In this document: piece after piece, positions 52,815 through 53,090 of the stretch | How the letters are laid out: each line of letters begins with the position of its first letter | Numbering within the stretch: the first letter of the stretch is position 1 | Source of the DNA: an uncultured delta proteobacterium | GTDB lineage: Bacteria > Desulfobacterota > Desulfomonilia > Desulfomonilales > Desulfomonilaceae | DNA: 64,000 bases | Assembly: GCA_963789265.1 (NCBI GenBank) | Contig: CAWBKB010000006.1 | Location: 401,393 to 465,392, forward strand | Reading direction: 5' to 3' | Notes under the pieces: generated by a model | The model's input: only the letters and a program-made list of their open reading frames with translations | What the model was told of the DNA's origin: nothing | The model's database searches: none | Translations under genes and position numbers: made by a program

Positions 52815-53090
52815 TCTCCCTTCCTTGCGGATGCGGACTCACAAGATGGTCCTGGCGACTGTCCGGGGATGTTTGCACGTCGGCCTCCGGCGATCCAGCT
52901 ACGCGACAGCCATCAATAGCTAAGGATGTGACGATCTGCCGGTGCCTCCGCGTGGTACGCTGGACAGGACCATGCGGGCGTGCATCCCCCCCTTACGTGG
53001 AAGTACCGTTTTTCACAAGGAACCAGGCACTTCCTAGTCAATCTTCCCCCCACTGTCGAAGGTACGTTCATAAAAGAACAAATACCTGGT
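52815..53090 (-). ncRNA. predicted IS110 bridge RNA (boundaries approximate)
   Basis: Two stem-flanked loops carry segments matching the target flanks and the donor junction. Confidence 0.75.

Follow-up and report, generated by a model that had tools for sequence, protein, structure and literature searches.

The 64,000-nucleotide stretch of DNA analysed here (the window) carries, at 51852-53101 on its minus strand, an intact insertion sequence of the IS110 group, whose mobility most likely depends on recombination guided by a bridge RNA, as in IS621. A sequence-only reading had proposed an IS110 bridge-RNA element at this place, and every defining feature of such an element that the DNA can reveal was found; a base-for-base check showed all of its strings and coordinates to be correct on the minus strand. 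The same reading called the recombinase probably uncharacterised, which holds for this particular element but not for the kind, which is already well known: the window element is canonical, its bridge-RNA system was already described in 2024, and bridge RNAs have been predicted in 85.7% of IS110 elements (Durrant et al. 2024, PMC11208160). The features of the element and its surroundings are as follows.

51852-53101, minus strand: IS110-group insertion sequence, 1250 bp plus one CT core; boundaries from two genomic copies with different flanks and from the relative L051
53110-53104, minus strand: left target (LT) CCACACC, followed by the core CT at 53103-53102
53101, minus strand: start (TGTATG) of the left end, 293 nt, non-coding
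53099-53094, minus strand: -10 box TATGTT, in the left end
52957-53093, minus strand: clade-specific 5' leader of the presumed bridge RNA, with variable hairpins, a G7 tract plus ATGCAC (52992-52980) and hairpin H3 (~52977-52949)
52887-52942, minus strand: target-binding loop (TBL), from stem covariation and guide-flank covariation
52942-52933 and 52895-52887, minus strand: TBL stem, CCGGCAGATC pairing with GATCGCCGG
52930-52923, 52906-52899 and 52898, minus strand: TBL guides, namely the left target guide (LTG) CACAUCCU, the right target guide (RTG) UCGCGUAG and the handshake base C
52921-52908, minus strand: 4-bp hairpin AGCT/GGCT between the target guides
52818-52867, minus strand: donor-binding loop (DBL), its basal CCC (52867-52865) pairing with GGG (52820-52818)
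52862-52855, 52833-52831 with 52828-52824, and 52823, minus strand: DBL guides, namely the left donor guide (LDG) ACAGUCGC, the right donor guide (RDG) CAU..GCAAG and the handshake base G
52852-52835, minus strand: DBL hairpin GGAC/GUCC
52930-52923, 52906-52899, 52862-52855 and 52828-52824: the guides as read on the minus strand, CACATCCT, TCGCGTAG, ACAGTCGC and GCAAG
51867-52808, minus strand: recombinase gene, 313 aa, TTG start at 52808, stop at 51867, Shine-Dalgarno GGGAGA at 52820-52815
51870-51865, minus strand: -35 box TTGACA, in the right end, overlapping the TGA stop codon
51858-51852, minus strand: right-end tip ACAGTCG, closing a 15-nt right end
51851-51850 and 51849-51843, minus strand: right core CT and right target (RT) ACGCGAG
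53260-53362, no strand: intact neighbouring palindromic repeat with the target motif at its tips (..GCGTAGGATGCTGGTGAG ... CTCACCAGCATCCTAC..)

Both junctions reconstructed earlier, an empty target CCACACC-CT-ACGCGAG and a donor junction ACAGTCG-CT-TGTATG, were reproduced. The CT core is present at both junctions in the window copy, in the second genomic copy (copy 2) and in L051, and terminal inverted repeats are absent, the combination with a short core by which the IS110 group is recognized. The stop codon lies 15 nt from the right-end tip, and on the plus strand the AG of the right core forms part of the TAG stop of a PhoU-like (PhoU-domain) ORF at 51126-51851.

In a Pfam search the 313-aa protein contained an N-terminal DEDD RuvC-like domain (PF01548, 6.1e-22) and a C-terminal Tnp domain (PF02371, 4.1e-20), and it scored 237 bits against the NCBIfam model NF033542, 'IS110 family RNA-guided transposase', whose cut-off is 140. 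Solved recombinases aligned with it over residues 5-307 by phmmer (IS621, 4e-34; ISCro4, 1.7e-35). All five catalytic residues are kept: D10, E54, D96, D99 and S235-G236 correspond to D11, E60, D102, D105 and S241-G242 of IS621, for which D11, E60, D102, D105 and S241 have been named as catalytic (PMC11208158). The IS110 family is common, being present in 6 of 14 control genomes, and the genome studied here has five IS110-family genes, two of which are this element; one of the 29 members of the 90% protein cluster bears the label Desulfomonilaceae. The same genome also harbors another, distinct IS110-family RNA-guided transposase in three copies (184 bits; ORFs 360-362 aa long), at G000:C1:1413855-1414835, C7:107068-108048 and C4:447-1427, where the covariance model R1 introduced below had no match.

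Independent insertions were found at related sites. In the window copy, the LTG plus core agrees with LT at 7 of 8 positions, the single mismatch being a U:G wobble (U in the guide, C on the top strand, G on the bottom strand), and the RTG is the exact reverse complement of CTACGCGA; both matches had been described in these terms beforehand. The RTG zone fits its own flank at 8 of 8 positions, a score that none of 31 non-cognate flanks equalled in a fixed-register test over homologues. Copy 2 (G000:C1, locus L002) is a full copy, 99.4% identical with seven differences inside the element, and its flanks read CCACATC-CT-[IS]-CT-ACGGGCT, of which the left is an exact 8/8 match to the LTG CACAUCCU and the RT matches the RTG at only 6 of 8 positions, five of them contiguous from the core. 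L051, a metagenomic relative (93% aa), lies in CCACATC-CT-[IS]-CT-ACGCGGA; its left flank is likewise 8/8 to the LTG, and the two non-identical positions of its RTG, UUGCGUAG, are U:G wobbles. L052, also a metagenomic relative (84% aa), has the flank CT-ACGAAGG and the RTG UUUCGUAG, so that relative to the window the target goes from GC to AA and the guide from GC to UU, which reads as a compensatory change. The concern that other copies might insert at sites unrelated to CACAYCCTACGCGA was thus not borne out by copy 2, L051 or L052. Within the contigs of four DNA runs (contigs only), we found no circle junction, empty site or join across the element, and the loose contig ends of these runs reproduce only the copy 2 flank and a remnant, L003.

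L003 (G000:C1:2416346-2416426 plus flanks; locus ~1500-1600) is an 81-nt right-end remnant with 100% identity. On one side it reads CT-ACGCGAGCT, the right target that the window copy has as well; on the other, the right-end junction recurs in inverted orientation (CGCGTAG-CGACTGTG), and the two junctions make up a perfect palindrome of 15 nt that encloses 62 nt from the right end. The breakpoint lies within the element's own short inverted repeat (GTTGCTTGTCA / GTTGATTGTCA), and the join is also present in a contig of run X1. Such an arrangement could have arisen by a template switch or as the product of half-site recombination.

The sites occupied by the element are largely those of a palindromic repeat of ~100-140 nt of which the genome contains 57 or more ends; the ends read TCGCGTAGGATGTGGTGAACC... 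and the interior holds GATGCGGTTC motifs and GC-rich stem-loops, which makes these repeats look like REP or MITE elements. The guide-specified 14-mer CACATCCTACGCGA has one exact and nine one-mismatch sites in the genome, and 7 of these 10 are tips of the repeat. With up to two mismatches there is no overall excess (59 sites vs 63 for the reversed control); the excess is confined to the class with zero or one mismatch, 10 sites vs ~2 by hand arithmetic for a uniform 6-Mb genome, a figure that has no reversed control. The repeat end GCGTAGGATGTGGTGAAC, by comparison, has 57 sites with up to three mismatches vs 1 for its reversed control, including 11 inverted pairs 100-270 nt apart. Among these 57 tips, 9 differ from the 14-mer by no more than one mismatch and 28 by no more than two. 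Repeat tips are where copy 2 and L051 have inserted (their flanks contain GATGCGGTTC...CACCACATC), and the window copy occupies a shortened, degenerate form of the repeat. The tips usually carry a GC-rich stem-loop (e.g., CCCCGCGGTCGCGGGG) a few bases 5' of CACATC-CT.

Besides the intact neighbor at 53260-53362, a further site of the palindromic repeat lies in the window at 60162. An Rfam MIR5020 match proved spurious, being the hairpin of the neighboring repeat at 24 bits vs a gathering score of 73. A hairpin repeat was also seen in the flanks of L092 and L096 and in the left flanks of L028 and L050, GGGACAGGCATCTTGCCTGTC-like in G000 and GACCGGCAAGATGCCGGTC in a related genome, where the GACCGGCAAGATGCCGGTC hairpin repeat is the target of a sister element with the LTG UCCGGUCCU. 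Other repeat families in the window (D1-D3, 79-94% identical; 41671-41842, 60274-60432; 4834-4885, 34401-34452, 50771-50822) are unrelated to the insertion sequence.

The two ends of the element also hold the halves of a split promoter. The 13 nt from TTGACA to the right-end tip, the 2-nt core and 2 nt of the left end together place TTGACA exactly 17 nt from TATGTT, a promoter that, as far as the sequence goes, exists only when right end, CT and left end are joined. The arrangement is conserved, with at least five of six matches to TTGACA at exactly 17 nt in 35 of 43 distinct relatives and all six in 18. A promoter scan of the integrated state found no sigma-70-like site (0 vs 0.7 expected). 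A circle-dependent promoter has been described for IS110 elements (PMC11208160), and TTGACA-17-TATGTT is predicted to be that promoter.

The left end is long, 293-327 nt in this clade vs ~185-235 nt in most other relatives. The extra leader contains hairpins that differ in sequence, a G6-8 tract with RYGCAC after it and, directly upstream of the TBL, a bipartite hairpin of 10-14 bp; the motif and the hairpin were recovered in 10 of 11 relatives folded individually. RNAalifold returned only four pairs on the 5' leader because the MAFFT alignment was out of register. Five of the seven differences between the two genomic copies fall within 61 nt of this leader (53028, 53024, 53020, 52998 and 52968), and none falls in the TBL or DBL. 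Because copy 2 agrees with L051, the 93% relative, at all five leader sites, the derived states there belong to the window copy, and one of them disrupts a base pair of H3.

With five leader changes, the window copy could be slightly impaired. A stronger form of this idea is that, while of the bridge-RNA type, it is a decaying relic that is no longer mobile, which we consider unlikely. In its favor are the clustered, derived leader changes and the weakened H3, together with the wobble in the window LT, the rearranged 81-nt right-end remnant and the presence of only two genomic copies despite at least nine repeat tips within one mismatch of the ideal target. However, the ORF is open, full length and equipped with all catalytic residues, the two copies show no difference in the TBL or DBL and receive the same score, 148.2 bits, in the model described below, and neither the halves of the promoter nor the two ends are damaged. 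The 99.4% identity of the two copies further suggests recent transposition. The earlier description of the element as intact is upheld by the open ORF, the full-length alignment to IS621 and the two nearly identical copies.

The region upstream of the ORF could, in principle, be a mere 5' UTR or regulatory leader of the transposase, with guide matches that are chance or insertion leftovers. Consistent with such a reading, the folding energy of the single sequence was no better than that of shuffles (z -1.3, -0.9 and -1.2), and the 3' strand of the DBL overlaps the ribosome-binding site, so an additional translational role is possible. The minimum-free-energy (MFE) fold pairs part of the RTG, and an Rfam 15 scan of 51500-53500 gave no bridge-RNA family match. 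We relied on comparison, using an alignment (A2) of the last 150 nt of the left end in 19 relatives with 47-99% protein identity. The structure tested was the one proposed from the DNA letters: an outer helix, a TBL stem CCGGC.GATC/GATCGCCGG, an inter-guide hairpin, a DBL CCC/GGG stem and a DBL hairpin. Across the 19 sequences, standard pairs were present in 94.7% of 434 cells, vs 24-56% when the 3' partners were slid by 1-3 columns, and two-sided changes occurred in 8 of 23 pairs, all four TBL-hairpin pairs among them. None of 500 shuffles reached any of five structure measures. Outer helix 1 was only 70% paired, and the basal CCC/GGG stem of the DBL is invariant among these sequences and hence uninformative. 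Folding as a check on the guides thus gave a divided outcome, in that the MFE is not significant and occludes part of the RTG, whereas stem covariation supports the loops; the case for the predicted placement of guides in loops is comparison between sequences, not energy. The two-loop RNA itself stood up, with covarying stems and with four guides in canonical order and strand sense.

A covariance model (R1) built from A2 found 79 matches in 89 sources, with the RNA upstream of the ORF in relatives, and gave exactly one match in the window (52806-52956, 148.2 bits) and two in the whole genome. One source, L022 (G030:C40), has tandem bridge-RNA matches ~1.27 kb apart (locus 1649-1797 and 2921-3067); the second has a shortened RTG zone (GTCCA--AAC), and a related element may have inserted here, either in tandem or nested. 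For the comparison of guides with flanks, guide zones were taken from the covariance-model alignment and element ends were located by conserved end motifs, with target flanks not involved. The 79 rows yielded 62 with both guide zones, of which 52 had a left flank and 45 a right flank; rows were dropped for lack of a TBL alignment, for contig ends, as the second tandem L022 match, or because their ends were unmatched by the regular expressions. One row was kept per distinct guide zone. At the left target, the cognate mean was 6.42 of 8 vs 3.94 for non-cognate flanks (38 distinct guides), and at the right target it was 6.69 of 8 vs 3.77 (32 distinct guides); in either case 0 of 20,000 permutations reached the value. 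The covariation between guides and flanks that was to be sought among homologues is therefore present, cognate exceeding non-cognate across ~60 of them. An alignment-free guide search of the whole leader was too noisy, as many non-cognate 9-mers scored equally.

The donor guides behave in the same way. The right-end tip was located without recourse to its own sequence, as the -35 hexamer plus 13 nt plus CT, and the left donor (LD) thus defined equals the LDG zone at 7 of 7 positions in 15 of 18 distinct pairs and at 6 of 7 in the other three (0 of 20,000 permutations). Rare LD variants (ACAGACG, ACCGTTA, ACGGTTG and GCAGTTG) covary with the LDG. The RDG is CAAG where the left end starts with TG and CTAG in three elements that start with AG (L004, L005 and L069). 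The RDG of the window element, made up of CAU (52833-52831) and, after a gap of 2 nt, GCAAG, fits CT-TGTATG with one G:T wobble. The earlier assignment of an exact left-donor guide at 52855-52862 and of GCAAG as an approximate complement of CTTGT was right in strings and coordinates alike. The base 3' of the RDG (G 52823 here) is Watson-Crick complementary to position 7 of the LTG in 34 of 37 distinct rows, with pairs C:G in 28, T:A in 5 and A:T in 1, a total reached by 1 of 20,000 permutations. Position 6 of the handshake gave no signal, 8 of 37 rows being the chance level. Handshake covariation at position 7 has been reported (PMC11208158), and our result for that position agrees with it.

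With all four guides and the handshake base covarying with their DNA partners over dozens of elements (at most 1 in 20,000 permutations per test) and with compensatory changes in close relatives, a plain untranslated leader is a very improbable account of the region. Because the guides lie 170-280 nt inside the element, they are not target duplications. Least credible of all is membership in the IS1111 group, which shares the recombinase family, a CT-type core and RNA-guided target choice with the window element but is defined by a guide RNA (seekRNA/bridge RNA) in the right end and 7-17-bp subterminal inverted repeats (PMC11208160), and which we rejected because the right end here extends only 15 nt past the stop codon, the RNA model matches only the left end, where the two-loop RNA lies in its entirety, and the element ends bear no such repeats.

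For the bridge-RNA reading, transcription, RNA-protein binding, a circular intermediate and recombination activity would follow by analogy with IS621, and the course of events may be pictured from the anatomy described above. Circular excision would join the right end to the left end via one CT core, and this join would set TTGACA 17 nt from TATGTT and so create a promoter. The junction promoter would then transcribe the left end into a bridge RNA of ~280 nt, in whose second loop the LDG ACAGUCGC and the RDG CAU..GCAAG would hold the right-end/left-end junction. A tetramer of the 313-aa recombinase, with D10/E54/D96/D99 and Ser235, would presumably cut beside CT and exchange strands, after which the handshake bases C 52898 and G 52823 would pair. 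Insertion would take place at CACAYC-CT-ACGCGA, that is, at the tip of an abundant palindromic repeat.

IS621 of E. coli is the closest described parallel to this scheme in its components. As reported in PMC11208160 and PMC11208158, it has in common with the window element a DEDD plus Ser recombinase, a CT core and a left-end RNA with TBL followed by DBL, as well as a discontiguous RDG, a position-7 handshake base, a split junction promoter and insertion into palindromic repeats. The two proteins are distant relatives that align over nearly their whole length. The IS621 bridge RNA is given as 177 nt, in contrast to the 293-nt left end of the window element, which has ~100 nt or more of extra 5' leader with a G7 tract; the RTG match spans 8 nt here vs the 4 nt given for IS621; and the target sequence and repeat family differ. 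Among engineered bridge recombinases of the ISCro4 (PDB 9t56) and IS622 type (10.1101/2025.05.14.653916), ISCro4 matches best of the solved structures (1.7e-35), and its domains follow the same order; the window recombinase is a different orthologue. ISPpu10 of Pseudomonas putida is described as inserting into many copies of one conserved intergenic repeat with a GC-rich stem-loop before the target (bioRxiv 10.64898/2026.03.19.712850). The window element resembles it in the GC-rich stem-loop at repeat tips, 5' of the target, and differs from it in repeat family and guides.

It is tempting, if speculative, to regard the bridge RNA of this clade as a long form, homing to repeat tips with a GC-rich stem-loop beside the target and bearing a conserved extra 5' domain without an IS621 counterpart that may serve as a functional module, for example in RNA processing, in stability control or in reading a structured target; we hold this possibility tentatively and think it doubtful as it stands. 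If true, the long-form 5' domain would add a further layer on top of the four guides. Independently of that domain, the element adds a compact natural bridge recombinase of 313 aa whose guides can be read, whose RTG spans 8 nt and whose natural target is defined. It comes from an uncultured soil/sediment lineage and could be a further orthologue for genome-engineering screens. It leaves the known mechanism unchanged and provides another case of IS110 elements homing to palindromic repeats.
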